DNA of 64,000 nucleotides from Myxococcota bacterium (GTDB lineage: Bacteria > Myxococcota_A > UBA796 > CAJQPC01), in contig DASCPX010000071.1 of the NCBI GenBank assembly GCA_036012755.1, positions 80,215 through 144,214 on the forward strand, given 5' to 3'. Below, in pieces: positions 8,213 to 51,427 of this stretch. The notes beneath the pieces are model-generated. The model saw nothing but the letters and a program-made list of their open reading frames with translations, was not told the origin of the DNA and searched no databases. A program made the position numbers and the translations under genes. Numbering within the stretch: the stretch's first letter is position 1; each line of letters begins with the position of its first letter.

Positions 8213-8237
8213 CAGCCGGCCGAGCCTAACACCCCCG

Positions 8238-18061: not shown

Positions 18062-18086
18062 GCAGCCCACCAGCGCGGAGAGAGCC

Positions 18087-31147: not shown

Positions 31148-33108
31148 TTCGGAGGCGGCCCGGGGTAGATGCATTTCGCGGGGCACTTCTCCGCGGCGGC
31201 GACGAGCTCGGCGTGGGTGCCGGCGGCGAGGTCACCGATGGTGGCCTGCTTGTTCTCGTCGTAGATGAACAACAGCGGGTTGATCTCGAGGCAGTCGTTG
31301 CAGCTCGTGCAGAGAGCGCTGTCGATCCAGGCCTCTTCATCGTCATCGTCGTCCTCGACGACGGGCTCGGGCTCGGAGGCCGCAGGTTCGGGCTCGTCCT
31401 CCACCACCGGCGCTGTCACGGCGCGCGGTGGCGGACGCACCGCCGGGGCGGCTTCGCCGTCGATCAACACCGAGGCGAGGCGCTGTATTGCCTCTCGGGC
31501 AGCCTCGACGCGGAGTCGGGCGAGCTCCTCGCCGTGGACCTCTGCGAGGGCAGCCTGCTCCGACTCGCCCTGTCGCCGGGCCTCTTCGCGAGCCTGCGCC
31601 GCCGCCTGGCGGGCGTGCTCGTTGGCGACGCCCCCCAGCTCCCGGAGGTGCCGCCAGGTGCGCCGCCGGTCGGCGATCGCCAGCCGCAGCGCGTCCGAAC
31701 AGCTCTGGGGGCCGTCGTTGGTCGCGACCTCGCCCTCCGGATCGGGCTGGAAGTGGTGCGCAAGCGCCGGGTCGAGCAAGGCGTAGTCGGCGAAGGTGAA
31801 GCCCGTCGACCAGTCCTCCTCTGGCTCGGGGTTTCCAGAGACGTCCATGGCGGCGGCCCAGCTCTCACCCGCCGAGGGGTCGTAGCGGAACAGGGGCAGG
31901 GCCCGGGCGTCGACCGCTGCGCTGGCGGTGAGCCAGGCGCCGATGGGCAGTGTCTCCCCATCCAACAGCCCGCTGGCCACAAGGTGAAGCGCCGGCCGCA
32001 GCCCGCCCAGCGCTGCCCGGAAGCCCTCCCACAGGTGCTCGTGACGAGCAGGGGTGGACTGCTGGACGAAGGCCTGTCGCATGCTGACGGCGAGCAGGCC
32101 CAGCTCGACCCGGTGCCCGGCCAGCGGATCCTCTCCCGGCGCGAGGCCGGGGTTGCGGGAAGGCTGGACCTCCGCGAGGATCTGCAGGGGGCGACCGGAG
32201 GCGAGGAGGCGGATCAGCGCGCCGAGCTCGCCAGATGCGAGGGTGTCCGCGTCGGTGACCACGATGATGGTGGGCAACAGCGCGGCCTCCGCCTCGCCGA
32301 AACAGCGCCAGTCGAAGGCGTGGAGCAGCGGCTCGTGCCGCTCGGGATCCCAGGCATCGGCGAGCTCCAGCCTGGCGGCCCGCAGGCCTCCCAGGGCCAG
32401 GGCGAGCTCCTGCGCCGCCACGTCGAAGCGGGCAGCAGCCGTCGCGCAGGCCTCGTCTCCGCCAGGCACGACGATGACCGCCGGACCGCAGAGGTGGAGC
32501 TGCTCGATCAGTGACCGGATGCGCGCCCGGCGCTCTGGCGGCATCGCGAGAGTGCCCCGTCGACCCACCATCGTGGCGAGCGCGCCAGCGTCCAGGCGCT
32601 CTCCGGTAGTCCCACCGAGTTCGCCGCTGCGGTCCTCGTAGGCTCGCTCGACCGCCAGCAGGCTGCGGAGGGCCTGCTGGGTGCTCTGGAGCTCGGCGAC
32701 CAGGGCCCGCCGAACGGGCAGCGCGTGTTGGCGCGCGGCCTCCTCGAGCAGAGCCAGCGCCGCCCCGGAGTCGTAGGACAGCAGCCTGCCTTCGGCTGGC
32801 AGCCCCTCGATGAGGTGCTCCAGCAGGGCCGCGAGCTGCTGATCGGGGCCTTCCCCCAGGCCCAGCTGTGCCCGCATCCGTTCGCCGGCGGCCCGGACGC
32901 AGTCACGAGGCGTTGTGCCCTCGCCCTCTCTCAGCGCGGCCTCCAGTCGGCCGAGGTTGTCGCTCAGCAAGGTGGAGCCGAGAGACTCGGCGATGCCGCG
33001 GATGTGCTCGGAGAGAGGCTCTGGAGCTCCACCGTCCAGCAACAAGGGCCACGGCAGGCGCAGGCGCCCCGGGTCGGCGTAGGGTTCGAATGCGACGGGC
33101 AGGGTCAT
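31144..33108 (-). CDS. Protein with a degenerate PFOR C-terminal-like region and C-terminal ferredoxin
   Basis: AVDARALPLFRYDP, NPEPEEDW, TFAD; C-terminal WIDSALCTSCNDC...AEKCPAKCI. Confidence 0.7.
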   Translation of the reverse strand: MTLPVAFEPYADPGRLRLPWPLLLDGGAPEPLSEHIRGIAESLGSTLLSDNLGRLEAALREGEGTTPRDCVRAAGERMRAQLGLGEGPDQQLAALLEHLIEGLPAEGRLLSYDSGAALALLEEAARQHALPVRRALVAELQSTQQALRSLLAVERAYEDRSGELGGTTGERLDAGALATMVGRRGTLAMPPERRARIRSLIEQLHLCGPAVIVVPGGDEACATAAARFDVAAQELALALGGLRAARLELADAWDPERHEPLLHAFDWRCFGEAEAALLPTIIVVTDADTLASGELGALIRLLASGRPLQILAEVQPSRNPGLAPGEDPLAGHRVELGLLAVSMRQAFVQQSTPARHEHLWEGFRAALGGLRPALHLVASGLLDGETLPIGAWLTASAAVDARALPLFRYDPSAGESWAAAMDVSGNPEPEEDWSTGFTFADYALLDPALAHHFQPDPEGEVATNDGPQSCSDALRLAIADRRRTWRHLRELGGVANEHARQAAAQAREEARRQGESEQAALAEVHGEELARLRVEAAREAIQRLASVLIDGEAAPAVRPPPRAVTAPVVEDEPEPAASEPEPVVEDDDDDEEAWIDSALCTSCNDCLEINPLLFIYDENKQATIGDLAAGTHAELVAAAEKCPAKCIYPGPPPK

Positions 33109-33115
33109 GTCCACC

Positions 33116-34069
33116 TCAGATGGCGAAGCGGTCGAGCTGGGTCTCCAGGGCGCTCAGCTTCTGTTCGGCGCTGGCTTCGATGCCGATAGCGCTGTAGTCG
33201 TCGTAGACCGGCCGCGTGGCGTCCTTGAAGAGCAGCCCGATGGGCACGCAGTCCCTGCGATCGGCCAGCGCACGGGCGCCGGCGAGGTCGGACGGTGCGT
33301 GCGCCAGCTCGTTCTCGAAGCTGCGCTTCACAGCGTCGGGATTCGGGATGCCGTCTGCGTCCGAGAGCACGAGGATCCTCTCCGGCTCCTTCTGCAGCTG
33401 GGCGAAGACGTGATCGGTGTAGGTGGGGCAGCGCTGGAGGATGCGGACGAAGGACAGCCCGCGGTGGTCGTGGGCCGCCTTGAGGGTCTCGTAGAGATGG
33501 GGCGGGTTCCAGTCGACGGTCTGGGCCACGAAGGAGGCGTTGGTCATGCCGAGCGTGGTCGCCAGGGGGTCCATGGCGGGCAACCAGGCACCCCGAGGAT
33601 GGGTGTTGGTCTTCTCGCCTGGCTCCGTGGTGGGCGAGGTCTGCTTCTTGGTGAGGCCGTAGATGTTGTTGTCGAACAACAGCACGACCATGTTCATGTT
33701 GTAGCGGATGGCGTGCAGCCAGTGGCCGGCGCCGATGGAGCAGCAGTCGCCGTCACCTGTCGCGACCCAGACGTCCAGGTCGGGGCGGCGGCACTTGATT
33801 CCCTCCGCGACGGGCAGGGCGCGACCGTGCAGACCGTGGAACCCGTAGGTGCCCATGTAGTGGGGGAAGCGGCCGGCGCAGCCAATCCCCGACACGCACA
33901 CGACCTTCTCCGGGCGCAGCTGCTTCTCGCGAAGGAGCCGCTGCACTGCGCTCAGCACGGCGAAGTCGCCGCAGCCCGGGCACCAGCGCCCTGTTCCGCC
34001 CTCGTAGTCCTCGAGGGTGAAGTAGCGAGGCGGGACCTCCATGGACCAGTCGTCCTTGAGACCGAACAT
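33116..34069 (-). CDS. korB: 2-oxoacid:ferredoxin oxidoreductase beta subunit
   Basis: WCPGCGD, VSGIGC, HGRALP, TPP motif GDGD...DNNIYGLTK-QTSPT. Confidence 0.88.
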   Translation of the reverse strand: MFGLKDDWSMEVPPRYFTLEDYEGGTGRWCPGCGDFAVLSAVQRLLREKQLRPEKVVCVSGIGCAGRFPHYMGTYGFHGLHGRALPVAEGIKCRRPDLDVWVATGDGDCCSIGAGHWLHAIRYNMNMVVLLFDNNIYGLTKKQTSPTTEPGEKTNTHPRGAWLPAMDPLATTLGMTNASFVAQTVDWNPPHLYETLKAAHDHRGLSFVRILQRCPTYTDHVFAQLQKEPERILVLSDADGIPNPDAVKRSFENELAHAPSDLAGARALADRRDCVPIGLLFKDATRPVYDDYSAIGIEASAEQKLSALETQLDRFAI

Positions 34070-35928
34070 CAGACCTCCAAGCGGGCGAGGATGGCTTTGT
34101 GGACCTGGTCGGGGGACAGGGGCTGGCCGGGAACGGTGCCCCAGCAGTCGATGTCCAACAGGGTGCTGGCGCGCAGCATCCAGGCCAGCTGTGCGTAGCG
34201 GCGGTTGTTCTCGTCCACGTACCCGCCGACGGTGTCCGCGAAGTTGATCTCGACGGTCATCACGCGACCGAAGCGGCCGAAGATCTCGTCGAGCCCGGGC
34301 TCCAGCGGAGAGAGGAAGCGCAGGTGGACCGCGGAGACGGCGTGTCCCTGTGCCCGAGCGCGGTCGACCGCCTCGTGGATGGCGCCCATCGTCGAGCCCC
34401 AGCCGACGACGAGGAGGTCACCCTCGTCGGCGCCGTAGACCTCTGGCGGCTTCAGCTTGCTCTGGAGCGCGGCCAGCTTGCGGCTGCGAAGCTCGCAGGA
34501 GACCTGGTTCGTGTCCGCGTCGTAGGCGACCTTGCTGTTGCGGGTGTGGGCGAGCCCGGTCAGCACGTACTCGCCACCGACCTGTCCCGGGATCGGGCGG
34601 GGAGAGACGCCGCTGTCGGCGTCCCAGGCGTAGGGCTCGAGCTCCGGGTCCCAGGCGGACTGGTCGATCGGAGCCGCGAGCCACTCCTCCTGGGGCTTCG
34701 GGCGATCGAAGGCGCTGACACCCGTGGCGAGGTTGGCGTCGGTGAGCAGGATGACGAGGGCCCGGAAGTCCTCGGCCAGCTGGCGGGCGAGCACGGTGAG
34801 GTGGAAGCAGTCCTCGATGGTGGCGGCTGCCAGGACGATCTTGGGTGCGTCTCCGGGGGCTCCGAAGACCGAGGCCAGCAGGTCACCCTGCTCGACCTTG
34901 GTGGGCAGACCCGTCGAGGGACCACCGCGCTGGACCAGCACGAGGACGAGGGGGATCTCGGCCATGACGGCGAGACCGACGAACTCGGTCTTGAGCGCGA
35001 GGCCGGGGCCGGAGGTGATGGTGCAGGCGGTCTTGCCGGCGTAGGAGGCGCCGATCGCGAAGCCGATGGCGGCGATCTCGTCCTCTGCCTGGTGGAGGAA
35101 GCCACCAGCTTGGTCGAAGGTCCCGGCGAGGAAGTGCGAGGCGCTCGTGGCCGGCGTGATCGGGTACATGCTGACCAGGTCCATCCCGGCGGCCATGACC
35201 CCGAGGCCGATGGCCTGGTTGCCGTTCATGACGACCTGCGGCTCCGTCTGCTCGTGGCAAGGCACGATGAAGCGGTAGGGCACGTGCTCCAAGGCGAAGT
35301 CCCAGCCAGCGCGGACCAGGCGCTGGTTCGACTGGACGACCTGGGGCCCCTTTCGACCGAAGAGCATCGCCACCTCTCGGGTCGCGACGTCCAGATCGCG
35401 GCCGTAGATGTGGCAGAGCATGCCGAGCACGAACATGTTCTTGCCGACCCGTGCGCCCCCGGTCAGCTCCAAACAGGCTGCGTCGATGGACAGCTCGAGG
35501 ACATCCAGGCCCATGCCCTTGAAGCGCTCGAGGGACTCCGCGTACTGCTCGCGGATGCTCTCGACGCGGTCGGTGGCCCACTTGTCCTCGAGCAGCAGGA
35601 TCGTGCCCTCGCGGTAGGCCCGCTGGTCGATCCGGCTGAAGAGCACCTGCTCGTTGAAAGCGACGACGAGGTCCGCCTTGTCGCCCATGTTCGTCATCGG
35701 GCGGTCGCCGATCCGAATGCGGATGCCACTGGCTCCGGCGGGGGAGCGGGCGGGCGGCTTGATCTCCGCAGGGATGATCTCCACCGTCCAGACGCCGTTT
35801 CGCATCTTGGCGCTGATGGCTCCAAAGGCCTGGCCGGCCTTCTGGGCGCCCTCACCGGAGTCGCTGACGATCTCGATGATGTGTTGGTCGACGGTCTGAG
35901 CCACCGCCTGTTCGCGCACTGCTTCCAT
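34069..35928 (-). CDS. korA: 2-oxoacid:ferredoxin oxidoreductase alpha (gamma-alpha fusion) subunit
   Basis: DSGEG, PAEI, KNMF, YPITPA, QAEDEIAA, TSGPGLALK-E, QRGGPSTGLPTK-EQGD. Confidence 0.88.
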   Translation of the reverse strand: MEAVREQAVAQTVDQHIIEIVSDSGEGAQKAGQAFGAISAKMRNGVWTVEIIPAEIKPPARSPAGASGIRIRIGDRPMTNMGDKADLVVAFNEQVLFSRIDQRAYREGTILLLEDKWATDRVESIREQYAESLERFKGMGLDVLELSIDAACLELTGGARVGKNMFVLGMLCHIYGRDLDVATREVAMLFGRKGPQVVQSNQRLVRAGWDFALEHVPYRFIVPCHEQTEPQVVMNGNQAIGLGVMAAGMDLVSMYPITPATSASHFLAGTFDQAGGFLHQAEDEIAAIGFAIGASYAGKTACTITSGPGLALKTEFVGLAVMAEIPLVLVLVQRGGPSTGLPTKVEQGDLLASVFGAPGDAPKIVLAAATIEDCFHLTVLARQLAEDFRALVILLTDANLATGVSAFDRPKPQEEWLAAPIDQSAWDPELEPYAWDADSGVSPRPIPGQVGGEYVLTGLAHTRNSKVAYDADTNQVSCELRSRKLAALQSKLKPPEVYGADEGDLLVVGWGSTMGAIHEAVDRARAQGHAVSAVHLRFLSPLEPGLDEIFGRFGRVMTVEINFADTVGGYVDENNRRYAQLAWMLRASTLLDIDCWGTVPGQPLSPDQVHKAILARLEV

Positions 35929-37368: not shown

Positions 37369-38205
37369 ATGTGGCTCTTGCTGGCGCTGTCCTGTGACCT
37401 CGAACCGGACCCCCTCCCGACCGAGGAGGCGGCCCGCGACGCGGACGCCGGCATGGAGGAGGCCGCGACACCACCGATGGTGCAGCTGCTCTACGACTAC
37501 GCGTTCCTGCCAGATGTCCAGTACCGCCAGCAGCGCGTGCGCATGTTGCTGTGGCTCGTCCACATGGAGCTCTCCGAATACCAGCTGCGCGTGCTCGCAG
37601 AGGCCTGGACCACCGCCGAGACCGAGCGGGGGCGCATCGACGAGGCACAGCGCGAGATCGTCGCCCAGTACGAGCCGGAGCTGGGGGCGGTCTACGACCA
37701 GGTCTGGGAGAGGCTGCGCTCGGGGGCTTCGATCGACGACCCGGAGCTCCTGGCCCTGGCCGAGCCGCTCACAGAGGCCCGAATCCACAAGGAGCAGGAG
37801 CGGGAGCTCCTGGCCCTGCGCTTCCAGGGCGTCGAGGCCGTCAACGCCGCCCAGAAGGACTTCCTGCGCTCGCTCTCGCCCCAGCAGGAGGCCAAGGTCG
37901 CGGACGCCAGCTTCTTCCTGCGCCACAAGCTGGATCCCTACGCGAACCCCGGGGACTTCAACGCGCTGATCGGGACCGTCTTCACCCCCGGCGACTACGC
38001 GACGCTGAAGCGCGGCTCCTTCGACCCCGAGACCGACCACCTCGACCTCGCAGGCCTGTGGTCCGATCCCGGCGACCCGGATCGCGAAAAAGGTGTCTTC
38101 CCCGACGTGCAGCGCGAGCTCGTGGTCTTCATGATCCTCCAGGAGCCGGCCCTGCCAGAGGCCATCGAGGCAGCGCTCAGCCGCTCGAGCCCGCCGGCTC
38201 CCTGA
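37369..38205 (+). CDS. Hypothetical helical lipoprotein
   Basis: MWLLLALSC; strong GC3 bias. Confidence 0.7.
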   Translation: MWLLLALSCDLEPDPLPTEEAARDADAGMEEAATPPMVQLLYDYAFLPDVQYRQQRVRMLLWLVHMELSEYQLRVLAEAWTTAETERGRIDEAQREIVAQYEPELGAVYDQVWERLRSGASIDDPELLALAEPLTEARIHKEQERELLALRFQGVEAVNAAQKDFLRSLSPQQEAKVADASFFLRHKLDPYANPGDFNALIGTVFTPGDYATLKRGSFDPETDHLDLAGLWSDPGDPDREKGVFPDVQRELVVFMILQEPALPEAIEAALSRSSPPAP

Positions 38206-40021
38206 GCCCCGAAGCGAGGATCTCCCGCTGGGCCTGGAGACCGTGGCGGAGTCGCCACAGGTCCTGGAGCCGGGCCTTCTGGACCGCGACCGCCGCCGAG
38301 TGATCGCGCACCCCGGCGTCGATGACCTCGTGGAAGCGGGTGAGCTCCTCGACCAGCTGGCGGCGCAGACGCAGGCGCAGCATCGACTCGAGCTGAGGGC
38401 GCGCCGCGCGCAGCTGGGCCAGGCCCTCGTCCCGGGCCTCGACCACCGAGTCCTTCAGGCGCACGGCCGCCTTCTTTCGCAAGCTGTCCAAGGGCGTGAT
38501 GAGCCGATCCACCGCGAGGAAGGCCCCAGATGCAAGGACCAGGGGCACGACCACAGGCGCGCCGATCAGCAGGCCCAGCCCCAAGGCGCCAAGGCCCGCG
38601 CCGACGCTGAAGGCCGTGCGGGGACCGCGGTCTTCGCCGACGAGCCCCTCGATGCCGACCCGGACCTCGGCCTGGTGCAGGCCCTCGACGTCCACCATGC
38701 CCAGGTCCCCAGCCCGAGCAGCTTCGACAAGCCGATAGCGCTCGACGAGCTCCCCGAGCGCCGCCGTCGCGAGGGTCGACCAGGCCTCCTCCAGCACCGC
38801 CTGGCCTGCGTTCAAGGCCCGCCCGGCGTGGATCTCCAGCGCCGTGGGCATGCTCTGTTCGAGGTCCTCGCCCAGGGCCGTCAGCGCACGCCTGGAGCCC
38901 ACCTCTGCGATGCGGTCGTCCCAGCGCCCGTGCCAGCCGCCCAGCTCCCGGAGCCACACGGACTCCATCGCCTCCACAGCCCGGTCCACCGCCTCGTCAA
39001 CGTCCACCTCGGCGAGGGTCTCCTCCAGGAAGGCGTCCGGATCCGGGATGCGCTGGGACTCGAGCTGTTCGGCCCGCAGGGAGTAGCGCGCCTCTGCCTG
39101 GTCGCAGGCGGCGTCGACCAGCTCGATGGCCTGCTCGGCAGCCCGCGCCGCCCGCCGCACCAGGATCAGGTCGCGGTCCCTCGCCAGCCGATCGACCAGC
39201 TCTCCCAGGTCCTCCGCGAAGCGACGCGCGAAGTAGGGCCGCGTGCCGTCGAGCACCGACTGGGCGGCCACGGCCCAGGCCACGACCTCGTCGGTCCCGA
39301 GCCCGACCTGCTCGGCGAAGCGCCGGACCCCCACCCGTCGGGCCTCCTCGACCTCTTCAGCGGGGTCGCCCCCCACATCCTCTGCGTTGTCCCAGGCGCG
39401 ATCGACCTTCGTGAGCATCAGGTAGACCTCGGGCACCTGCTGTCGGACCCGCTCCAGGAAGTCCAGGGTGCTGCGGGGCAGCGCCTGCTGGAGATCCGAC
39501 AACAGGATGCAGCCGTCCGCCTCCTTCTCGATCGCCGCCCAGGCCCGGGCCTGGTTCTCCTCGTGGTCCGTGTTCACGCCGGGGGTGTCCAGCAGCACCA
39601 GGTCCGCTGGGAGCACCTCGCTCGGCACCCACAGCTCCAGCTCGAGCACGCCGGCGGTCTTCAGATCCGTGAGCGCCGCGACCTCTTCGAGGCACGCGCC
39701 CTCCTCGACGCCTCCTTCTCGAATCGCGCGATAGCGCCTGGGTCCTCGACGGATCCGCGTGACCGTCCCGGTGCACTCCCGGATCGCCACCCCCAAGATG
39801 GCCTCTCCCATCACCGCGTTGAGGAAGGTGCTCTTGCCTGCCTTCTTCTCCCCTACCACCGCGACGACGAGCTCCTCTCGACGGAGCCGATCCCGCAGCT
39901 CCGAGACGAGGTCCTCGATCTCGTCTCCAGCCTCGCCGAAGCTCTCCCGGTGGCGCAACAGCGCCTGCAGCTGCAGGGCAGCAGAGCCGACTGCGTCGAT
40001 GAGCTCGATCCGGGTTGCCAC
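38177..40021 (-). CDS. Dynamin-like GTPase
   Basis: G1 GEKKAGKST, G2 ECT, G3 DTPG, G4 TKVD, helical stalk, hydrophobic paddle; start codon uncertain. Confidence 0.85.
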   Translation of the reverse strand: MATRIELIDAVGSAALQLQALLRHRESFGEAGDEIEDLVSELRDRLRREELVVAVVGEKKAGKSTFLNAVMGEAILGVAIRECTGTVTRIRRGPRRYRAIREGGVEEGACLEEVAALTDLKTAGVLELELWVPSEVLPADLVLLDTPGVNTDHEENQARAWAAIEKEADGCILLSDLQQALPRSTLDFLERVRQQVPEVYLMLTKVDRAWDNAEDVGGDPAEEVEEARRVGVRRFAEQVGLGTDEVVAWAVAAQSVLDGTRPYFARRFAEDLGELVDRLARDRDLILVRRAARAAEQAIELVDAACDQAEARYSLRAEQLESQRIPDPDAFLEETLAEVDVDEAVDRAVEAMESVWLRELGGWHGRWDDRIAEVGSRRALTALGEDLEQSMPTALEIHAGRALNAGQAVLEEAWSTLATAALGELVERYRLVEAARAGDLGMVDVEGLHQAEVRVGIEGLVGEDRGPRTAFSVGAGLGALGLGLLIGAPVVVPLVLASGAFLAVDRLITPLDSLRKKAAVRLKDSVVEARDEGLAQLRAARPQLESMLRLRLRRQLVEELTRFHEVIDAGVRDHSAAVAVQKARLQDLWRLRHGLQAQREILASGLREPAGSSG

Positions 40022-40074
40022 GAGACGAAATAAAAGCACGGCCCGCGCGGTATGTTCCGTCTTCGGGAGGTTCT

Positions 40075-41061
40075 GTGGATCCGCTCACTGGAAAGGTGGT
40101 CAAGGAAGTCGCCGCGAAGGTGGTCAAGGAAGTCGCCGCGAAGGAGCTCGTGGGCGAAGGCTTGAAGACCGCGACCCTGGCCGAAGCCGCCGAGCTTCCG
40201 GCGCTCGCCGAGGTCAGCGAGGCCGCCGGCTGGCCGATGGAAGGCCTGCGCAAGGCCGCCGACGCCACCGCCGCCGCCTTCGACGGCCTCGACGCGGTGC
40301 TGGGCATCCCGGAGATCGCCGAGGAGCACCTCGAGGAGCGCGAGCTCATGTCCACCGTCGGGGCCCCGCTGCGGGTCGGGCGGGTCGGCGAGCGGCTGGC
40401 AGCCAAGGCAACCGTCGAGCAGCTCGGCGGCTTCTGGGACGACATCTTCGGCCCGGACCTGTCGACCTGCGAGGTCTACGTCCACGACTGGGGCCCCGAG
40501 CAGTTCAACGGGATCGGCGACCCCCTCGACGCCGGCGAATGCTGGCGGAAGCAGAACGGGCCAGCCTCCTGCGCGGTGGTGAGCCAGGTCGGCATCATCG
40601 AGTACATGACCGGCGAGTGCCTCAGCGAGGACGCAGCCTGCCGCATCGCAGAGGACATGGGCTGGTTCGATCCCCACGGCGGCACGATGCCCGAGCACTG
40701 CGACAAGCTGCTCGAGTACCACGGCATCGACACCGACAAGCACTACAACAGCGACATCATGGAGATCGTCGAGGCGCTCGAAAACGGCGACCAGGTCCTC
40801 GTCGGGCTCAACGCCAACTACCTCTGGTACCCCATGCGCGACCCGGTCACCGGAGGGGTCGCGGTGCAGCCCGGAGGCGCAGGCCACGCGGTCTGGATCA
40901 CCGGTGTCGACATGGACCCCCACGGCAACGTCACGGTGCTCATGAACGACAGCGGGCACGGCGCTGGTCGCTGCCAGGCGGTCTCCCTCGCCGACTTCGA
41001 GGCCGGCTGGGAGGAGTTCTCCAACTTCGTCGTGATCGCCAAGAACCCACAGGTGGCCTGA
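40075..41061 (+). CDS. C39-like papain-fold cysteine peptidase
   Basis: KQNGPASC (Q, C), AGHAV (H), MNDSG (D), FEAGW; GTG 40075 after GGAGG. Confidence 0.75.
   Translation: MDPLTGKVVKEVAAKVVKEVAAKELVGEGLKTATLAEAAELPALAEVSEAAGWPMEGLRKAADATAAAFDGLDAVLGIPEIAEEHLEERELMSTVGAPLRVGRVGERLAAKATVEQLGGFWDDIFGPDLSTCEVYVHDWGPEQFNGIGDPLDAGECWRKQNGPASCAVVSQVGIIEYMTGECLSEDAACRIAEDMGWFDPHGGTMPEHCDKLLEYHGIDTDKHYNSDIMEIVEALENGDQVLVGLNANYLWYPMRDPVTGGVAVQPGGAGHAVWITGVDMDPHGNVTVLMNDSGHGAGRCQAVSLADFEAGWEEFSNFVVIAKNPQVA
40093..40140 (+). repeat. Perfect 24-bp tandem duplication encoding KVVKEVAA twice
   Basis: aaggtggtcaaggaagtcgccgcg repeated exactly. Confidence 0.9.
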
Positions 41062-41516
41062 TGGACATGCGTCGACTTCGTGAAGCCTCCGAGCGAGCCC
41101 GTGCCGGGCGACCCACCGCCGGCCCCCTGGCCACCTTCCTGGCCGGACTGCGCGCCCGCCCAGAGCTGGCCGGTGTCATCGGCGTCGAGTCCGCCGTGAT
41201 GCTCCCGGTCCCCTCGGCAGATGACGGCTGGAGCCTCGTGAGCGTGGTCGGCCTGCGGCACGGCAAGGATGGCCCCTGGTCGCCCCCGCGCTTCCGCCTG
41301 CGCTGGTCCTGGCCGAATCCGGCCGAGGTCGCCATCGAGCGCCTCGATGCCAGCGGGCCCGTCGATCCACCGACCGGCTCGCCCAGTGAGCGCGTCCAGC
41401 TCCTTTCAGCGCTGGAACGACTGGTCACCACCGACCCGGCATCCGCTCCCGATCTCGGCCCCTTGCTCGAGCGGCTCGAGGCGACCTGGCCCGCCCAGTG
41501 GTGGGAGGCGCGCTAA
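41061..41516 (+). CDS. Hypothetical protein
   Basis: TGATG coupling to the peptidase stop; MDMRRLRE...WPAQWWEAR. Confidence 0.6.
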   Translation: MDMRRLREASERARAGRPTAGPLATFLAGLRARPELAGVIGVESAVMLPVPSADDGWSLVSVVGLRHGKDGPWSPPRFRLRWSWPNPAEVAIERLDASGPVDPPTGSPSERVQLLSALERLVTTDPASAPDLGPLLERLEATWPAQWWEAR

Positions 41517-41540
41517 GCTCGCCGACCCACGGAGGGTCCC

Positions 41541-43478
41541 ATGAGCTTCGAGGACTACCTGGCCCTGCGGGCTCGGCTCCTGCACGCCCTCGACCAGCTG
41601 GCGGTCGCCTACACCAAGGCGGGCATCGAGGCCCGCTCGGCGAGCCTGCGCGAGATCCGGACCAGGCTCGAGGACGACACCTTCCGCCTGATGGTCGTCG
41701 GCGAGTTCAAGCGCGGCAAGTCGACCCTGGTCAACGCTCTGCTCGGAGACGCGATCCTGCCCGCCAAGGTCGCCCCCTGCACGGCGGTGATCACGGAGGT
41801 GCGCTTCGGCGAGGAGCCAGAGGCCGTGCTCTTCGGCACCGACGGCTCCAAGCGCGAGGTGCCCTTCGACCGCATCCGCGAGTTCGTCTGCATCGACGAA
41901 GACGACGAGGGGCCCTCCCCCTGGGCGAAGCTGGAGCTCTACTACCCCCTCGAGATCTGCCGTAACAACGTCGAGATCATCGACAGCCCCGGGCTCAACG
42001 AGCACCACACGCGGACCGAGGTGGCCCTGGACTACCTGCCCCGAGCCGACGCGCTGGTGATGGTGTTGTCCTGCGAGATGGCGCTGTCACAGTCGGAGCT
42101 CGGCTTCATCGATGACACGCTGGGAGGCCGAGACCTCTCCAACGTCTTCTTCCTGTGGAACCGCTACGACGCCGTGGCCGACTCGCCGGACGACCTCGAC
42201 GACATCAAGCGGCGCTCCCGCCGCATGCTGGAACCCAAGCTCACGGCCAAGAACCGGATCTTCTTCGTCTCGGCCAAGGACGCCCTCGTCGGTCGACGCC
42301 GGGGCTCGCCGGAGCTCGTGGAGCGCTCGCTGATGCCGGTCTTCGAGGAGGTGCTCGAGCAGTTCCTCGCCGGGGAGCGAGGGCGGGTGAAGGTGCTTGG
42401 CCCGCTGCGCTCGGCGGAGAAGGCCGCTCGGGACTGCGCGCTCCAGATCCCGCGCATGGAGGCCCACCTCGCCGCGCCGCTGGAGGAGCTGGAGAAGAAG
42501 CAGGCGGCCCTGTCTCCTCGCATCTCCGAGCTGGAGAAGAAGCGCCTGCGGGTCGGACGCATGCTGGACCGGCGCGAGGCCGAGCTGGGAGACCTCGTAG
42601 ACGGGCGGCTGCGGGGCTACATCAACGGGCTGGAGTCCAGGCTGCGCCAGTGCGTCCAGGACGCGCCCTCGTCCTGGTGGGAAGGCCTCGTCAACAAGAA
42701 GAAGGTCCACAAGAAGCACATCGAGGGGCTCTGCGAGTTCCTCGGCAAGGACTTCCGCGCCTGGCAGGACGACGAGCTCACGCCGCTGATCACGCGCCAC
42801 GTCGAGGGGACCTACGAGGCCCTCGACGACGAGCTGCGCTTCTTCCTGAAGGACGTCGACGCCATCCGCGCGGATCTCCTGCCCGAGCTCGAGTTCGACG
42901 AAGACGTCGACGAGGCCTCACCGGTGGACCGGGTCCTGTCCACAGCTGGCGTCGCCATCCTCTACGGCATCGCCCCGGGGCTGATGATCGAGGGAGCCAG
43001 CGGCGGCATCAAGCAGGTCATGGAGGGCCTGGGCTACCAGGTCGCGTCCTTCGTCGGGGTCGTCATCATCGGCACCCTGCTGGGAGTCACCGCGCCTGTC
43101 CTGGCCCCCATCGTGCTCGTGGCCTCGGTCGGCATGGCGGTCCTGCGCGCGCTCTTCAAGACCCGCTCGGCGATGGAGAAGCTCCAGGACAAGGCCGTCG
43201 CCGATGTCATGGTCGCCATCCGCGACTCCATGCCGGTGATCGAGTCAAAGGCCGCCGATCGCATCTCCCTTACCCTCGGCGAGCTGAGCTCGGCCATCGA
43301 CAACGGCATGCAGACGATGATCGACGAGGTCCAGGCAGAGGTCGCCACGATCCTCACGGAGAAGCGATCCGGAGAGGCCGCCGTGAAGAGGGGCCGCCAG
43401 CGCCTGCTGGAGGCCCGAGGCATCCTCGGCGAGATCAGCGAGACCCTCGACAGCGTGCGCGCCGCCGTCGACCGCTGA
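41541..43478 (+). CDS. Dynamin-like GTPase (BDLP-like)
   Basis: G1 GEFKRGKST, PCTA, G3 DSPG, G4 NRYD, FFVSAKDAL, coiled coil, hydrophobic paddle; GGAGG RBS. Confidence 0.9.
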   Translation: MSFEDYLALRARLLHALDQLAVAYTKAGIEARSASLREIRTRLEDDTFRLMVVGEFKRGKSTLVNALLGDAILPAKVAPCTAVITEVRFGEEPEAVLFGTDGSKREVPFDRIREFVCIDEDDEGPSPWAKLELYYPLEICRNNVEIIDSPGLNEHHTRTEVALDYLPRADALVMVLSCEMALSQSELGFIDDTLGGRDLSNVFFLWNRYDAVADSPDDLDDIKRRSRRMLEPKLTAKNRIFFVSAKDALVGRRRGSPELVERSLMPVFEEVLEQFLAGERGRVKVLGPLRSAEKAARDCALQIPRMEAHLAAPLEELEKKQAALSPRISELEKKRLRVGRMLDRREAELGDLVDGRLRGYINGLESRLRQCVQDAPSSWWEGLVNKKKVHKKHIEGLCEFLGKDFRAWQDDELTPLITRHVEGTYEALDDELRFFLKDVDAIRADLLPELEFDEDVDEASPVDRVLSTAGVAILYGIAPGLMIEGASGGIKQVMEGLGYQVASFVGVVIIGTLLGVTAPVLAPIVLVASVGMAVLRALFKTRSAMEKLQDKAVADVMVAIRDSMPVIESKAADRISLTLGELSSAIDNGMQTMIDEVQAEVATILTEKRSGEAAVKRGRQRLLEARGILGEISETLDSVRAAVDR

Positions 43479-46400
43479 TCAGCTCGGGAGCGCGTCGAGG
43501 TAGCCGGAGATGTCGCGACCGGACGCGGCGAGCACGATGGCGCCTGCGCGGAGTGCCACCCACTCCCAGGTGGCGTCGTCTCCGTCGACGAGGCCCAGGG
43601 CCGCGGCCTGGAGCACGAGCGGAGGGCCCTCTGCCGCGACGAAGGGGTCCTGCTCCAGCCTCACCCGCGCGGCGACGACCCTGGCCGCGGGCTCCAGGGG
43701 GAGCTCGCCCGCGAAAGCCCGGAAGCGCGAGCAGGCCTGCTCCCAGCGGCCCGGGCCAGAGGCCGACAGCTCACCCAGCACATCCTCCCAGCCATCGCCC
43801 AGGACCTGCGCTGCGGCCGCAGCCGCTGGCCAGGCGAGGCCACCCTCGGGCCGCGGTGCCCCGGTGCCCGCCGCGACGAGCACCGGCTCGACCAGCCTCA
43901 ACACCCGCCCTGCCCGCTGGCCGACGACGCGACCGTGTCGATCCCTGGCCCAGGCGAGGCGCTCCTCCCAGGACCCGAAGCGCTGGGGGGCTTCGTCCGG
44001 GATCAGGAGCTTGCCCAGGGCGAAGTCGACGAGCTCGCCCTCCTGCTCACGCAGCGAAGCCAGCCACGCCCCGTCAGGCGGCGGTCCTCGACCATCCAAC
44101 ACAAACTGCCAGGTGCGCTCGAGGTCTCCGTAGCGGGGGGCCTCTCGCTTCAGCGGCTCCAGGATCTTCTGCGTCGGGACCGACGCATAGGCGCAGGAAC
44201 GCACCGGACGGGTCATCGCCGGGGTCTTCACGATGGCCTCCCCGACCCCCAACAGGCCCAGGTCGTCCCAGCTGTCCTCGCTCAGGCCCAGGGTGCGGCC
44301 CATCTCGGCGATCTCCTCGCCGTCCTCGAGCCGCATCACTATCTTCGTGTTCGTGTTCTTGATGACCCCGCGAGCCAGCATCGCTGGACTCTGATCCACC
44401 ACCATCACGCCGATCCCCAGGCTGCGGCCCTCCTGCAGCAGTCGCACACAGTTTCGCAAGAGTGTACGTCCACCCTGGGCTTCCGCCGCGGCCCCGCGGC
44501 CCTCGTTCTCGCGACCGAGCACGTTGTGGGCCTCTTCGATGACGATCAGCCAGCGGGGTCGAGAGCGGTCTCCCTGCCTGGCAGTCTGTGATGCACGAAT
44601 GCGCTCGATCAACAACGACGTGATGAACGCAGGGAGGTTCAGCTCGCTCGCCGGGAGTTCCTCGAACTCGATGATCGTGTCACCAGGGAAGACCTCGTCG
44701 ATCGACCGCTCCCCGCCGTGGCTGAAGAGGTCCTGGAAGGTGGCGTCGAGGAAGATCCGCGCCCGCCCTTCGAGGGCCCCGCGGTAGTTGGCACCTACCT
44801 CAGGTCCATAAGAGAGGTCGTCGGCGACCAGCTGCACTCCCCGAGCGAAGTCGAGCACTCCGGGCACCTGCGAGGCTCCCTCGCCGATGAACGAGCCGGT
44901 CTCGATGTCCCACCCGAAGTCCTGGTAGCAGCGCTCCACGGCCTGACGCATGTAGGGACCGATGAGCGCCTCGGTCGGCAGCAGCTCGGCGAGACTGTCC
45001 GACAACACCGCGATGTGGCGCTTCAGCGAGGTCCCGGGCTCGAAGAAGAGGGGGTTGATCCTCAACGGATTCGTGGTGGCGTCACCGATGGTGTAGACCC
45101 TCGGCGGGCGACCTCGGATGCGGCTGAAGGCCCCGGCATAGGTGCGCTTGGCGGTCTCGAGCACGACCACCCGGAGCTCCGGCCCGAAGTCTCGGAGGCC
45201 CTCGAGGATCTTCAACACCCGGCTGGTCTTTCCGCAGCCCGTGGTGCCAGCGACGAGCACGTGGCGGAAGAGCTCACGCTCCGTGATCTCCACGTCGCTG
45301 CGGGTGTCGTCCCAGCTGCCGAAGCCGAAGGGGCCGATGCGCACACGCCGCCCCTCCGAGGGTGGCGGCGACGGGTTGCGACCGAGGAAGACACCGCGCT
45401 TCATGCGCAGGCCCGGCAGCTCGGCCTCCGGCAGGAGCAGGAAGCGCGCCGCCCGCTCACAGCTCAGGACCGGGAGCGCCGGATCGAGCCGGCCCAGGAT
45501 GGGGGTGTTGCTCCTCAACAGCTCCTCTGTCGCGCCCTCCAGCGGCACGGAGACCAGCGGCCGGTCCTTGGTCTGGGAGCCCGCCAGGACGCCCTTCACG
45601 ATGTCGCCGATGAGCGCGGCGTCGGAGCCGTCGGCGAGCACCACCGCCCCGGCTCGGAAGGCCCCTGTTCCGCGGGCCTCGTAGAGGCTCTTGAGGCTGC
45701 GATCGAGGCTGGAGTCGATCAGACCGAGCAGGCTGTCGAGGCGCTCCACCGTGCGGGTCTCTCCGTCGGTGCGGCTCGAGCCCGCCGTCGAGCTGGAGCT
45801 CTGGGTCCTCGTCTCGCTGAGCTGGCCCGGGTTGTCCTCCCACTGTGCCTGGGTCAGGTCACGCCGCCGGTGGCCGCGCCCGAGGTGCTTCACGAAGCGC
45901 CACGCCGTGCGGAGCAGGGGATCCTTCTCCCGCTGGGACTGTGCTGCGGCGAGGGAGTCGCTGGACTGGCTGCTCTCGTTCTCGCCGGTGGTCACCGAGC
46001 GAGCCTCCTGCACAGAGGCCTCCGCGTGGACGGCGTCGCGCAGCGCGGCGAGCCGAGAGAGCTCCGCCGCGAAGTCGTCGTCCGTGACCCGGCCCACCAC
46101 GAACATCAGGCGCAAGCGACGCACGTGGAGGCAGCTCTCGACGACGTCGTTGAGGGACTGGAAGGCCCGGGCGTCCGGCGCGCGGTCCTTGCGGATGCGC
46201 TCGTCGTCGAGGTCCTTTGGGGTCGGCACGCCCGAGACGAAGGCGCCGCGGGTGCCCTCCGGGGACTGGAGCAGCGACCAGCACTCGGCGGGCCGCAGCA
46301 ACTGCAGCTGCGAGGAGGGGAAGGCCTGGCGCTGGAGCTGGCCGACGATGCCTCGGAAGCGGGAGCGTCTCGTCTCGAGGGACTCGCGCTCGGGCAGCAC

Positions 46401-46700
46401 GCTCTGGTTGAAGCGCAGCATGAGCGTGACCGCGACGCGCGGCGCGACGTGGAGCTCGGGCCGGTCGGTCTCGACGATCCAGACGAGCTCCTCGCCCGGG
46501 CGCAACATCGGCAGCACGTTCTCCCAGTCGTGCACGCGGGGGACGAGGTCATGGTGGCCGAGCAGCTGGACTCGGACGGCGCACGCGTCGAGCAGGCCGG
46601 GGTGGACATCCAGGGGCGCGTGCCCCGGATCGAGCCGCAGCCGCATCCCCGGGACCCCCAGACCGAGTTGGAGGCGGAGCTCGGCGAGCTCGGGATTCAA
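43479..46700 (-). CDS. Large HerA/DUF87-like P-loop ATPase
   Basis: RHVLVAGTTGCGKT, INPL, LIVIEEAH, EGRSLGIG, DQSP, KNTNTKIVMRL; TTGA overlap and AAGGAG RBS. Confidence 0.85.
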   Translation of the reverse strand: MNPELAELRLQLGLGVPGMRLRLDPGHAPLDVHPGLLDACAVRVQLLGHHDLVPRVHDWENVLPMLRPGEELVWIVETDRPELHVAPRVAVTLMLRFNQSVLPERESLETRRSRFRGIVGQLQRQAFPSSQLQLLRPAECWSLLQSPEGTRGAFVSGVPTPKDLDDERIRKDRAPDARAFQSLNDVVESCLHVRRLRLMFVVGRVTDDDFAAELSRLAALRDAVHAEASVQEARSVTTGENESSQSSDSLAAAQSQREKDPLLRTAWRFVKHLGRGHRRRDLTQAQWEDNPGQLSETRTQSSSSTAGSSRTDGETRTVERLDSLLGLIDSSLDRSLKSLYEARGTGAFRAGAVVLADGSDAALIGDIVKGVLAGSQTKDRPLVSVPLEGATEELLRSNTPILGRLDPALPVLSCERAARFLLLPEAELPGLRMKRGVFLGRNPSPPPSEGRRVRIGPFGFGSWDDTRSDVEITERELFRHVLVAGTTGCGKTSRVLKILEGLRDFGPELRVVVLETAKRTYAGAFSRIRGRPPRVYTIGDATTNPLRINPLFFEPGTSLKRHIAVLSDSLAELLPTEALIGPYMRQAVERCYQDFGWDIETGSFIGEGASQVPGVLDFARGVQLVADDLSYGPEVGANYRGALEGRARIFLDATFQDLFSHGGERSIDEVFPGDTIIEFEELPASELNLPAFITSLLIERIRASQTARQGDRSRPRWLIVIEEAHNVLGRENEGRGAAAEAQGGRTLLRNCVRLLQEGRSLGIGVMVVDQSPAMLARGVIKNTNTKIVMRLEDGEEIAEMGRTLGLSEDSWDDLGLLGVGEAIVKTPAMTRPVRSCAYASVPTQKILEPLKREAPRYGDLERTWQFVLDGRGPPPDGAWLASLREQEGELVDFALGKLLIPDEAPQRFGSWEERLAWARDRHGRVVGQRAGRVLRLVEPVLVAAGTGAPRPEGGLAWPAAAAAAQVLGDGWEDVLGELSASGPGRWEQACSRFRAFAGELPLEPAARVVAARVRLEQDPFVAAEGPPLVLQAAALGLVDGDDATWEWVALRAGAIVLAASGRDISGYLDALPS

Positions 46701-47512
46701 GACAGCTCCTTCATCGAGATGCGGACCTCGAGATCAGCGCGAACATCTGCCGGAAGGGCGCTCCCGATGCGTTCCAGCGCGGCGACCTCCAGGGCCTCGC
46801 GAGAGGGGGCGGAGAGATCGCACAGCACCGATCCGAGCCAGGGGAGGCGAGGACAGTGGACCCCCGCGATCCGCAGCCCGCGAACATCCACGGCGACCTC
46901 CAGGGGCGGTGGCCCGTCTCGGTCGATGACGGCGAGACGGACCCGGCGCGCTCGCGTCGCAGGCACGACAGCGGCGACGGGCTGGTCCAGCGCGGCCCCG
47001 GCGCGTGTGCGCCAGCCCTCCTCCCAGTCCAGGTGCTCATCGAAGGCCAGGTCCGCCGGCTCCACGACCGTGGCCAGATCAGCGGCGAAGCGCCTCGCCC
47101 TGGCGAGGAGGTCCGCTCGTTCATCGAGTCCGTCCAGCTCCAGCACGACAAGGACTCCCCGCCCGGGGGCGCGCCGGAAGACAGCGCGGAGCATCTCCCG
47201 CTCGCGCCGAGACAGGAGCTGCCTCGCCGTGACGACGCCAACCACCCAGGTCGCCCGCACGAAGGCCCCGGCTCGTGCCTGGACCCAAGCGCCCGCGTCC
47301 CGACCGGGCGGGTCGGGCAGGAGGAGCTCCAGGTGCTCCGGCACGGCGGCGACGATCGAGGAGCGGTCGCGGTGTTCGTCGGCGACCACCACGACCAGCG
47401 GTGCTGATCCGGGCTCCTCGGTCGCGAGCTGGGACAGCCCCACCGCCAGGGCTCCCTCCTGTGCGGCGGCGAGCGTCCGCAAGGACTCCCGGACTTCGAC
47501 GAGCTCCCTCAT
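46697..47512 (-). CDS. Degenerate dynamin-N-like hypothetical protein
   Basis: Echoes of the G-domain scaffold (PLVVVVADEHRDRSSIV, QLLSRREREML) without a GK[ST] motif. Confidence 0.5.
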   Translation of the reverse strand: MRELVEVRESLRTLAAAQEGALAVGLSQLATEEPGSAPLVVVVADEHRDRSSIVAAVPEHLELLLPDPPGRDAGAWVQARAGAFVRATWVVGVVTARQLLSRREREMLRAVFRRAPGRGVLVVLELDGLDERADLLARARRFAADLATVVEPADLAFDEHLDWEEGWRTRAGAALDQPVAAVVPATRARRVRLAVIDRDGPPPLEVAVDVRGLRIAGVHCPRLPWLGSVLCDLSAPSREALEVAALERIGSALPADVRADLEVRISMKELS

Positions 47513-51052: not shown

Positions 51053-51427
51053 ATGCTCGCCCGACTGTCCCGTACGTATCGGTGGCGGTCGGGCGGTCGC
51101 TCGTTGGGAGCGACAGGGAGGACGGGCCCTGACATCCCGCCCACCGCCGTCTCCTCTCGAGGGCGCGTCCTCCTCATGGTGGGCGCGCTCCTCCTCTGTG
51201 GATCCGGACCCACCGAAGACCAGAAGGTGGCCGCGGCCGAGAAGCAGGCTCGCCGCGTCCTCGAGCACGCTGCCCACATCCACGGACTCATCGACGCGAC
51301 CGAGGAAGAGGGACGCCCGCTGAGGCTCGGCGAGATCCGGAGCACCCAGATCGAGCTCCACCAAGCAGTGATTCGCCTCGAGGCCGCGCTCACGAACCTC
51401 GAAGACTCAGGCCCCGAACTCGAGTAG
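51053..51427 (+). CDS. Hypothetical helical protein (start may be 51176)
   Basis: Hydrophobic stretch followed by a coiled-coil-like segment. Confidence 0.45.
   Translation: MLARLSRTYRWRSGGRSLGATGRTGPDIPPTAVSSRGRVLLMVGALLLCGSGPTEDQKVAAAEKQARRVLEHAAHIHGLIDATEEEGRPLRLGEIRSTQIELHQAVIRLEAALTNLEDSGPELE

Follow-up and report, generated by a model that had tools for sequence, protein, structure and literature searches.

The stretch of DNA considered here (the window) comprises 64,000 nucleotides from a Myxococcota bacterium (assembly GCA_036012755.1, contig DASCPX010000071.1, positions 80,215 to 144,214 of the forward strand). It holds, at positions 38177-47512, a cassette of six genes. The best interpretation is that it represents a variant, linked to dynamins and armed with a peptidase, of an ATPase-centered conflict system that has apparently not been described. 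The cassette begins on the minus strand with DLP1 (38177-40039, 620 aa), a full-length bacterial dynamin-like protein. Diverging from it, on the plus strand, is a peptidase gene in an open reading frame (ORF) at 40015-41061. The most likely start of this gene is the GTG at 40075 (40075-41061, 328 aa), because that codon is preceded five bases upstream by GGGAGG and gives the same M-DPLT start as in the closest homologue. The peptidase stop overlaps by 1 nt the start of the gene for a 151-aa protein (41061-41516, plus strand), a peptidase partner and candidate inhibitor or immunity protein, which is followed by DLP2 (41541-43478, plus strand, 645 aa), a second full-length bacterial dynamin-like protein. 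The two remaining genes lie on the minus strand and encode a 1073-aa ATPase of the HerA/VirB4/FtsK type (43479-46700) and P271 (46697-47512), a 271-aa protein that combines a degenerate dynamin-like G domain with a small C-terminal domain; here, the P271 stop and the ATPase start overlap by 4 nt. DLP2 and the ATPase converge with zero bases between their stop codons, and the divergent gap between DLP1 and the peptidase is 35 bp with the longest DLP1 ORF or 53 bp with its next in-frame GTG.

The G+C content of the window is ~69%, and many long ORFs in it are therefore spurious; the G+C content at third codon positions (GC3) is 0.83-0.94 in all six cassette ORFs, which is typical of real genes in this DNA. 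Positions and orientations thus agree with a reading made earlier by a model from the sequence alone (the first-pass annotation), which had described six tightly packed genes with a DLP1 divergence of about 53 bp (35-53 bp, depending on the DLP1 start) and a gapless DLP2/ATPase junction. No direct repeats were found flanking the cassette, and promoter or terminator matches at the cassette did not exceed those expected by chance. Contigs of four DNA sequencing runs cover the cassette, one of which, perhaps from the source itself, bridges both borders, with a few joints at low depth; no RNA dataset is listed as holding it. Near-identical DNA is found in contigs of marine, seawater and hydrothermal-vent metagenome runs, and a metagenome scan with the ATPase alone recovered only the window's own source, at 100% identity.

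The ATPase can be divided into an N-terminal region of ~440 aa, a core and a helical C-terminal region of ~230 aa, without any transmembrane segment detected by hydropathy. Its Pfam matches (TrwB_AAD_bind, DUF87 and HerA_C) are all below cut-off. Among the PADLOC models it matches HerA (2e-18) and, partially, mad8 (4.1e-19), and among the NCBIfam models CedD (3.5e-18), far below the equivalog cut-off. Scores with other NCBIfam models are also below their cut-offs: 40.7 bits for HerA_antiphage (cut-off 800), 19.5 bits for a second anti-phage HerA equivalog (850), 14.1 bits for EssC (778) and 11.4 bits for TraD (521). An AlphaFold2 model from a 22-row alignment (mean predicted local distance difference test, pLDDT, 78.8) was compared with known structures using Foldseek, which returned VirB4/TrwK, anti-phage and archaeal HerA, and the C-terminal domain of DndH with E values from 4e-14 to 4e-10. 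The matched core spans approximately residues 450-840; it resembles the DndH C-domain (7es4) with a template-modeling (TM) score by target of 0.73, and HerA-fold cores with TM scores by target of 0.44-0.54. Walker A (GTTGCGKT, 485-492), Walker B (VIEEAHN, 720-726) and an arginine finger, R759, are present, and GTTG.GKT, EEAHN and R759 are invariant across the family alignment. A search of the ESM Atlas with residues 1-440 was uninformative, the best named lead being DUF8128 at 0.85.

Both dynamin-like proteins pass the Pfam Dynamin_N cut-off of 27 bits, DLP1 with 64.3 bits (1.8e-17) and DLP2 with 91.3 bits (9e-26), and both have intact GTPase motifs: G1 GEKKAGKST, G3 DTPG and G4 TKVD in DLP1, and G1 GEFKRGKST, G3 DSPG and G4 NRYD in DLP2. 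Hydropathy indicates a hydrophobic paddle at approximately residues 475-515 of DLP1 and 465-541 of DLP2. The model of the bacterial helical domain matches DLP2 below cut-off only (20.9 versus 28.3 bits). In PADLOC, LeoBC matches DLP1 over residues 26-582 (7.2e-13) and LeoA matches DLP2 over most of its length (1.3e-21), as judged by E value and not by the per-model PADLOC thresholds. No direct family match was found for P271 in Pfam, PADLOC or NCBIfam, and a word-based homologue search found nothing; at the P-loop position the sequence reads ADEHRDRSS, i.e., GK[ST] is absent. An exhaustive profile search with P271 and its homologue from a related locus (L010, see below) returned seven proteins, among them P0086 (E 1.1e-5). 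In this protein an M48 peptidase is joined to a G domain whose loop is intact (GEKGRGKST), and P0086 itself matches Dynamin_N below cut-off (1.2e-4). Comparison by hhalign of the six-row P271-family alignment with seven dynamin G domains taken from the window and the related loci gave a probability of 97.4% (E 1.3e-11, 143 columns). Without the two M48 fusions (P0086 and P0089) the value was 92.9%, and with the two closest sequences only it was 12%. At the profile level these data support the assignment of P271 as a degenerate dynamin G domain. An AlphaFold2 model of P271 was poor (pLDDT 52) and was left out of the fold search. The components named in the first-pass annotation, i.e., a dynamin pair, a degenerate dynamin and a HerA-like ATPase of 1073 aa, are therefore recovered, the degenerate dynamin at the level of profiles.

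Approximately 58 full-length homologues of the ATPase were found at 35-50% identity, nearly all of them unnamed or annotated as "hypothetical". A scan of one genome per species over 185,579 species gave 263 ATPase relatives; the best 80 were retained and make up 78 loci (designated by L numbers). Twenty-two of these (L005-L026) were treated as close relatives of the full-length type, while L027-L082, in which the ATPase core or a part of it is 24-34% identical, were set aside as other systems on the basis of six that were inspected. The genomes of the close relatives are labeled Myxococcota, Verrucomicrobiota, Lentisphaerota, Kiritimatiellota, Planctomycetota and Fermentibacterota. A matrix of partner genes, built with local hidden Markov models (HMMs) over the 22 close loci and the window, revealed that in 12 loci the ATPase gene is preceded by two genes, X and Y. 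Protein Y, with one strong hydrophobic segment, is a single-pass membrane protein. Protein X (700-780 aa) has an N-terminal CxxC...CxxC and invariant DxGS..K, DAGG.S.D and GG...N, which we take to be the phosphate-1, phosphate-2 and adenosine motifs of the actin/Hsp70/sugar-kinase fold, an assignment from motifs that is not statistically supported. The phosphate-2 and adenosine motifs are in register with those of Hsp70 despite a non-significant hhalign comparison; X has no match in Pfam or PADLOC, and none among PDB sequences at E<=0.1. The possibility that X is a dynamin was rejected (hhalign 0.3%). No X gene was found in the genome of the window (96% complete).

In the window, L010, L017 and L026/L018, dynamin-like genes are found instead of X and Y, i.e., the X/Y pair of most relatives appears, from gene content, to be replaced in the window by two dynamin-like proteins and the degenerate dynamin G-domain protein, which is coupled to the ATPase in translation. 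Pfam confirms Dynamin_N in L010, L017, L018 and L026, where L018 and L026 come from the same metagenome-assembled genome (MAG) and the ATPase is apparently split over two contig ends. The closest counterpart is L010, in which genes for a P271-like protein, the ATPase, the peptidase, a 151-aa homologue and a DLP2 orthologue (43% identity) follow each other on a single strand, with a similar divergence from the window proteins throughout (34-49% identity). The unit of dynamin, peptidase and ATPase that had been proposed as a candidate system thus recurs in L010, and it recurs in part elsewhere: L005 has the ATPase, the peptidase and a 151-aa homologue, and dynamins adjoin ATPases in L017, L026/L018, L117 and L119. 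Directly after the L010 DLP2 orthologue is an N-terminal Hsp70 fragment (7948-8472, Pfam 2e-28), the frame of which decays after ~125 residues near the contig end; possible explanations are a pseudogene, an error of assembly or an additional component. Both L017 and L026 hold a sigma-70-like gene, a fusion of a Ser/Thr kinase with Dynamin_N, a ~306-aa protein and the ATPase, and L017 additionally a DUF1232 gene. In L018 the ATPase is followed by a tagged 499-aa protein (the tag is described below), an 843-aa LeoBC-like protein and a 358-aa Dynamin_N protein.

The ~306-aa protein of L017/L026 matches dynamin G domains (hhalign 94.1%, E 1.2e-7), and the gene upstream of the ATPase is therefore dynamin-derived in all dynamin-type loci that show it (window, L010, L017 and L026). 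Comparisons with two- or three-row alignments were not significant (P271 with DLP, 0.1%; P271 with the L017/L026 protein, 0.1%, and with Y, 0.4%; the L017/L026 protein with DLP, 0.2%), and the P271 family again gave no match to the L017/L026 protein or to Y. In two distant ATPase relatives from the window's phylum, L117 and L119, a Dynamin_N protein is encoded directly after the ATPase (2.5e-11 and 3.6e-18, respectively). The dynamin-type loci include some from Lentisphaerota. A tree of the ATPase was calculated from 291 core columns and 21 of the 22 rows; L022, in which the ATPase is cut by a contig end, was dropped. The window with L010 (93/91) and L017 with L018 (99/97) are found in different, well-supported halves of this tree, where L017 and L018 are sister to an X-Y locus. 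This separation implies that the link to dynamins arose, or was swapped, more than once.

Other neighbors are seen around more distant ATPase relatives. In L118 (1310-12998) and L116 (6436-17435), both from the window's phylum, the ATPase relative is followed by vWA proteins. A Tubulin_2 protein is also encoded in L118, while a 199-aa protein of L116 has a zinc-peptidase-like match that is weak. These two look like further systems in which this type of pump is paired with cytoskeletal NTPases. ATPase relatives at 25-30% identity in L027, L029, L043, L049 and L053 have ThiF/JAB (ubiquitin-like conjugation) or other neighbors; that of L029 adjoins an Hsp70 gene, and in L053 (Oscillospiraceae) a Peptidase_C39_2 protein is encoded 4 kb away.

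The gene directly after the ATPase varies among the loci. This slot holds a Colicin-DNase/WHH protein followed by a SUKH-1 immunity gene in L019, an AHH protein in L016, and in nine loci (L006, L009, L011, L012, L014, L021, L023, L024 and L025) one unnamed nuclease-like family, in which D225, E252 and K254 (D..ExK) are invariant over six aligned members, a spacing that we take to be a restriction-endonuclease-like motif. The 499-aa slot protein of L018 has weak M48/SprT-like matches, and the C39-like peptidase occupies the slot in the window cassette, L005 and L010. The first-pass annotation saw neither a nuclease nor a Sir2 partner. No Sir2 domain is found among the six proteins with Pfam or PADLOC, and the absence of a nuclease holds for the window variant; it does not extend to the relatives, where nucleases occupy the same slot. 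In 13 of the 19 loci with sequence after the ATPase, an ORF there starts with M(x)[DE]P[ILVMF][TS] (in short, the tag M-[DE]-P-x-[TS]), followed by a stretch rich in Ala/Val/Thr or Lys/Glu, and the window peptidase starts in the same way. As a control, all 1134 ORFs of these loci that reach 90 aa were examined; eight of them open with the strict motif, and each of the eight is the slot gene. A small gene follows the slot gene in many loci; in six of them it belongs to a 125-aa family, for which PADLOC 2.0.0 gave a single weak, chance-level match (E 0.019). The variety of effectors (three nuclease types and two peptidase types) points to general toxicity, i.e., abortive infection or killing, rather than to sequence-specific restriction.

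Two pairs of loci with the nuclease-like family share identical or nearly identical proteins. L009 (a Corallococcus exercitus chromosome) and L011 (a Polyangiaceae MAG) share X at 94%, the nuclease-like protein at 92% and the small protein at 84% identity, where the two genomes are labeled as different myxobacterial families; an IS66 transposase is found near L011 and an HTH_17 gene near L009, which together with the near-identity suggests recent transfer. In L006 and L014, from MAGs labeled Pseudomonadota and Myxococcales, the nuclease-like protein and the ATPase core are identical, reflecting either the same organism binned twice or a labeling problem.

The window peptidase is composed of the N-terminal M-DPLT, a Lys/Glu/Ala-rich helix and a papain-fold domain at approximately residues 130-328. 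It matches Peptidase_C39_2 (PF13529) with E 0.055 and 14.5 bits (cut-off 24), while the L010 orthologue reaches 21.9 bits and the L053 relative 30.3 bits; of nine database homologues, three carry a precomputed PF13529 match. In a collection of 5.8 billion proteins the family comprises 10 members, including that of the window. Residues Q160, C166, H271, N291 and D292 are invariant in all 12 aligned sequences and presumably form, by their order, a papain-type catalytic set (Q160/C166/H271/N291-D292). The protein is probably an active, C39-like cysteine peptidase of papain fold. A perfect 24-bp tandem duplication (40093-40140, plus strand) within the N-terminal helix encodes two copies of KVVKEVAA; as only one is present in P0074, the closest homologue, the duplication looks recent. 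Neither the peptidase nor its 151-aa partner has a hydrophobic (Sec-type) signal segment by hydropathy. The partner has no family match in Pfam, PADLOC or NCBIfam, and an ESM Atlas search was uninformative (best 0.77), yet a homologue at 27-35% identity is encoded directly after the peptidase in all three peptidase loci (window, L010 and L005). Prediction of a complex between peptidase residues 125-328 and the 151-aa protein gave weak support, with a score of 0.53 (runs 0.83, 0.51 and 0.53; contact agreement between runs at least 7%, partner pLDDT at least 57), where the best of three controls scored 0.00. The mark set for this score is attained by 116 of 157 solved complexes and by 2 of 215 mismatched pairs, and passing scores of 0.60 or below come from only 18 of the 157 solved complexes together with both passing mismatches. 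The 151-aa protein is a candidate inhibitor or immunity protein of the peptidase. The proposal of the first-pass annotation that the peptidase processes a component of the machine is not supported: the enzyme occupies a variable effector slot, has an N-terminal tag in common with the slot nucleases and is paired with a conserved small protein, and is therefore more likely a tagged effector than a processing enzyme.

The same layout invites the explanation that the cassette is a dedicated inter-bacterial toxin exporter, in which a VirB4/FtsK-type motor would read the tag and export interchangeable toxins, the small gene would provide kin immunity and the dynamins would remodel the membrane at the export site. 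The arrangement of toxin plus immunity gene, with C-terminal toxin domains swapped behind a common short N-terminus, fits such a function, as does SUKH-1 after the WHH/colicin-DNase protein of L019. Passages of PMC3482391 count AHH, WHH and a C39-like papain-fold domain (Tox-PLC39) among the domains of polymorphic toxins and describe the export of toxins by type VII and type IV systems as powered by FtsK-like ATPases. Moreover, the closest structural matches of the ATPase include VirB4/TrwK of a type IV system, membrane anchoring could be provided by Y or by the dynamin paddles, and without a Sec-type segment the peptidase and its partner would need a machine of their own for export. However, no channel, outer-membrane or pilus-like component is found in any locus examined, the ATPase has no membrane segment and scores 14 bits with EssC (cut-off 778), no spare toxin-immunity cassettes are seen arrayed downstream, and the flanks of the relatives are rich in phage-defense genes, with one cassette located between PglX and PglZ. 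Toxin export is therefore considered rather unlikely, although it is the strongest of the alternatives.

Those flanks were examined by a scan of 78 ORFs around the 11 related loci with usable flanks (PADLOC, E<=1e-5), in which nine of the loci gave matches and L016 and L019 none. The cassette of L021 lies between PglX and PglZ; BrxC, PglZ and BrxD flank L007, HmaB, HmaC and GajA flank L024, Hhe/PDC-S37 is found at L023, HerA and Vsr at L013, an RtcR-like and a BrxHI-like protein at L011, DrmD at L006, WYL at L025 and a weak DrmD-like match at L009. A defense role for the cassette is plausible, as PADLOC matches flank 9 of the 11 related loci. The window itself differs: Pfam identifies Rnf, 2-oxoacid:ferredoxin oxidoreductase, GT2, PEMT, radical SAM and kinase genes in the flanks, and its 13 flanking ORFs gave only generic kinase-domain matches and one weak radical-SAM match in PADLOC. 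A defense-island setting is thus seen, in several phyla, around the relatives and not around the window's own cassette.

With flanks of this kind, the cassette could alternatively be a housekeeping module for membrane repair or envelope biogenesis, tied to the adjacent glycosyltransferase and lipid-methyltransferase genes. The gap between the P271 gene and the GT2 gene, upstream on the same strand, is only 10 bp, and bacterial dynamins are known for membrane repair. However, GT2 and its neighbor are conserved in 19 of 20 other genomes searched of the same family, and in three relatives, one of the same genus, the GT2 gene and the 278-aa gene that flank the cassette are found 1.9, 1.1 and 0.1 kb from each other, and all six cassette genes are missing from the interval. 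The cassette is therefore an insertion. It is also sporadic in the phylum, where a full-length ATPase match (E reported as 0) is found in 5 of 401 genomes, including the window's own, and a close peptidase in 2 of 401, and its relatives lie in defense islands. A housekeeping function is accordingly regarded as very improbable. In the same-genus relative (L104, G403; 17127-18937), two unrelated genes, for a repeat-rich protein of 375 aa and a lipoprotein-like protein of 221 aa, occupy the place of the cassette, and the slot is therefore variable.

A variable insertion slot might have collected three independent neighbors: two dynamins of the Eleos kind, a toxin-antitoxin pair formed by peptidase and inhibitor, and a HerA-like ATPase accompanied by a small partner. 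The three transcription units differ in orientation, the slot carries other genes in a relative, and DLP1 and DLP2 match LeoBC and LeoA, where a system of two dynamins is described in part of 10.1101/2022.05.11.491447 as a stand-alone defense. Against independence, L010 keeps the P271-like protein, ATPase, peptidase, partner and DLP2 in one direction at 34-49% identity, the peptidase bears the tag that marks the gene downstream of the ATPase in other phyla, the ATPase's own coupled partner is dynamin-derived, and dynamin genes lie next to related ATPases in no fewer than two separate clades as well as in two relatives that are more distant. This combination makes a chance assembly of neighbors improbable.

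The reading that we favor, and hold with moderate confidence, is that the cassette is a horizontally acquired, membrane-associated, defense-type conflict module built around a rare HerA/VirB4-like ATPase family. Of the membrane-centered defense, repair or export machine proposed at first pass, the defense function remains plausible through the islands of the relatives, and peptidase processing is the part that is not supported. Several observations weigh against the favored interpretation. The dynamin-type loci have short or non-defense flanks, except for McrBC-like genes in L117, and the window's own flanks are metabolic and envelope genes without a defense island; the defense-island evidence therefore comes from the actin/Hsp70-type relatives. 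The assignment of X to the actin/Hsp70 fold rests in turn on sequence motifs, since hhalign to one Hsp70 gives 0.8%, which is not significant. The strict tag is missing in 6 of the 19 loci (L005, L006, L007, L013, L014 and L015), and one of these, L005, is among the three peptidase loci. The window peptidase itself scores under the Pfam cut-off, and SUKH immunity and HNH toxins (L019, L016) typify secreted polymorphic toxins rather than known intracellular defense effectors. Finally, both dynamin genes match Eleos HMMs and could act alone.

Starting from the gene content, homologies, linkage, tag and insertion described above, we infer the following for binding, trigger, targets and outcome in a defense module of this type. 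The dynamins would either bring the machine to the inner membrane or detect a disturbance of that membrane, while an ATPase ring would hold the effector by its N-terminal tag and the 151-aa protein would inhibit the peptidase. Upon a trigger, e.g., entry of a phage or of foreign DNA, the dynamins may sense or transmit a signal from the membrane, and ATP hydrolysis could then free the effector from its inhibitor or thread it. The peptidase would subsequently cut proteins of the cell or of the invader such that infection is stopped.

The system belongs to a broad known kind in which a HerA-type ATPase is combined with a swappable effector, and its components have counterparts in several described systems. 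As in Eleos/LeoABC, there are two paralogous full-length dynamin-like GTPases with intact P-loops and matches to LeoA and LeoBC. According to passages of 10.1101/2022.05.11.491447, the two-dynamin Eleos system consists of two consecutive genes only and is proven as a stand-alone defense; in the window, the dynamin genes diverge with the peptidase pair between them. Unlike Eleos, they also accompany a HerA-like ATPase and a third, degenerate dynamin domain. The Sir2-HerA ("Nezha"), DUF4297-HerA and NurA-HerA systems have in common with the cassette a HerA-fold core beside a toxic effector, with effectors that vary among relatives. In contrast to these, the window cassette has no Sir2, DUF4297 or NurA, its ATPase is far below the HerA_antiphage cut-off and is approximately twice as long, with large additional N- and C-terminal regions. 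To our knowledge, a dynamin or actin/Hsp70-like partner, a membrane protein and an N-terminal effector tag are not features of these systems.

DndH and the "HerA/FtsK capture systems" resemble the window's ATPase family in the DndH C-domain-like core, the location in defense islands, the BREX neighbors and the nucleases that adjoin the pump in most relatives. The contexts listed in passages of PMC10853773 include D5 helicase, cellular FtsK, DndD/E, Orc/Cdc6 with a REase, and eukaryotic elements, and further ones are PglZ/DUF6079/STAND and the BRC system of PMC12839542; the partners described in these passages are other than those in the window, and the passages make no mention of a peptidase effector or a tagged effector slot. 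The word "dynamin" is absent from the main texts (supplements aside) of PMC10853773, PMC12839542 and PMC7159879. The resemblance to polymorphic toxins and to type VII (EssC) and type IV (VirB4/VirD4) secretion consists of the short common N-terminus, variable C-terminal toxins, a downstream SUKH gene and a nearby FtsK/VirB4-type ATPase. The cassette differs in lacking WXG/LXG, PAAR, Rhs and other known trafficking domains as well as channel components, and in having a single ATPase domain without membrane segments that scores far below the EssC and TraD cut-offs; no secretion apparatus families were found among the neighbors in the window or in the loci of the relatives.

The DO-GTPase-GAP1 systems, as presented in passages of PMC7159879, combine paired GTPases and a constant partner with effectors that vary widely; they are often located at the membrane, and in some cases Hsp70 and tubulin are present. 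The likeness is one of theme only. Distant ATPase relatives do sit with Tubulin_2/vWA (L118) or Hsp70 (L029); those passages describe a new family of TRAFAC GTPases, not dynamins, and a core without a HerA-type ATPase. MADS shares the match of the ATPase core to mad8, and in L017 and L026 the kinase domain of the kinase-dynamin fusion matches mad6. According to the part of 10.1101/2023.03.30.534895 that deals with its components, MADS requires MAD6, MAD7 and MAD8, whereas the six window proteins include no mad6 or mad7 match and no methyltransferase, but only mad8, partly. PADLOC 2.0.0 (2023) has no model that matches X, Y, the nuclease-like family, the peptidase, the 151-aa protein or P271, in line with the first-pass annotation, to which no described system combining such parts was known, and no prior description of a dynamin-HerA system was found in the literature searched (main texts in open journals). 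Such a description may exist elsewhere or in newer DefenseFinder/PADLOC releases.

If the cassette is one machine, it joins two kinds of immune components that so far have been studied apart, i.e., dynamins (Eleos) and HerA-type pumps. The short N-terminal tag that marks swappable effectors would offer a handle for finding toxins and for testing how pump and cargo engage. A swap of actin/Hsp70-like for dynamin-like partners in separate branches would show that membrane and cytoskeletal NTPases are interchangeable modules, which bears on the origin of dynamin-type (Mx-like) immunity. A bolder and more doubtful idea is that these loci represent an unrecognized class of NTPase-driven toxin-deployment machines, in which the ATPase would read a universal M-[DE]-P-x-[TS] tag and would be combined with interchangeable toxins (nucleases or peptidases) and with likewise interchangeable cytomotive or membrane NTPases. 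On the same tentative footing, these partners would be mostly actin/Hsp70-like, dynamin-like here and tubulin-like in distant relatives. Such a class, if true, would mean either that proteins are translocated by a new route or that an immune effector is released in a new manner. Because L009 lies in a complete genome labeled Corallococcus exercitus SDU142, experiments are perhaps possible if the strain is obtainable.

Two further features of the window lie outside the cassette. A protein with Ser/Thr kinase, AAA_16 and TPR domains is encoded a few kb from the ATPase both in the window (51407-54382) and in L015 (7945-11586), which may be a coincidence, as such kinases are common in the phylum. 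At 23468-35928, Rnf-type genes (B, C, D, G and a membrane subunit of the A/E type) are found beside a 2-oxoacid:ferredoxin oxidoreductase set and a large POR/ferredoxin fusion, and together look like a ferredoxin-linked energy module.

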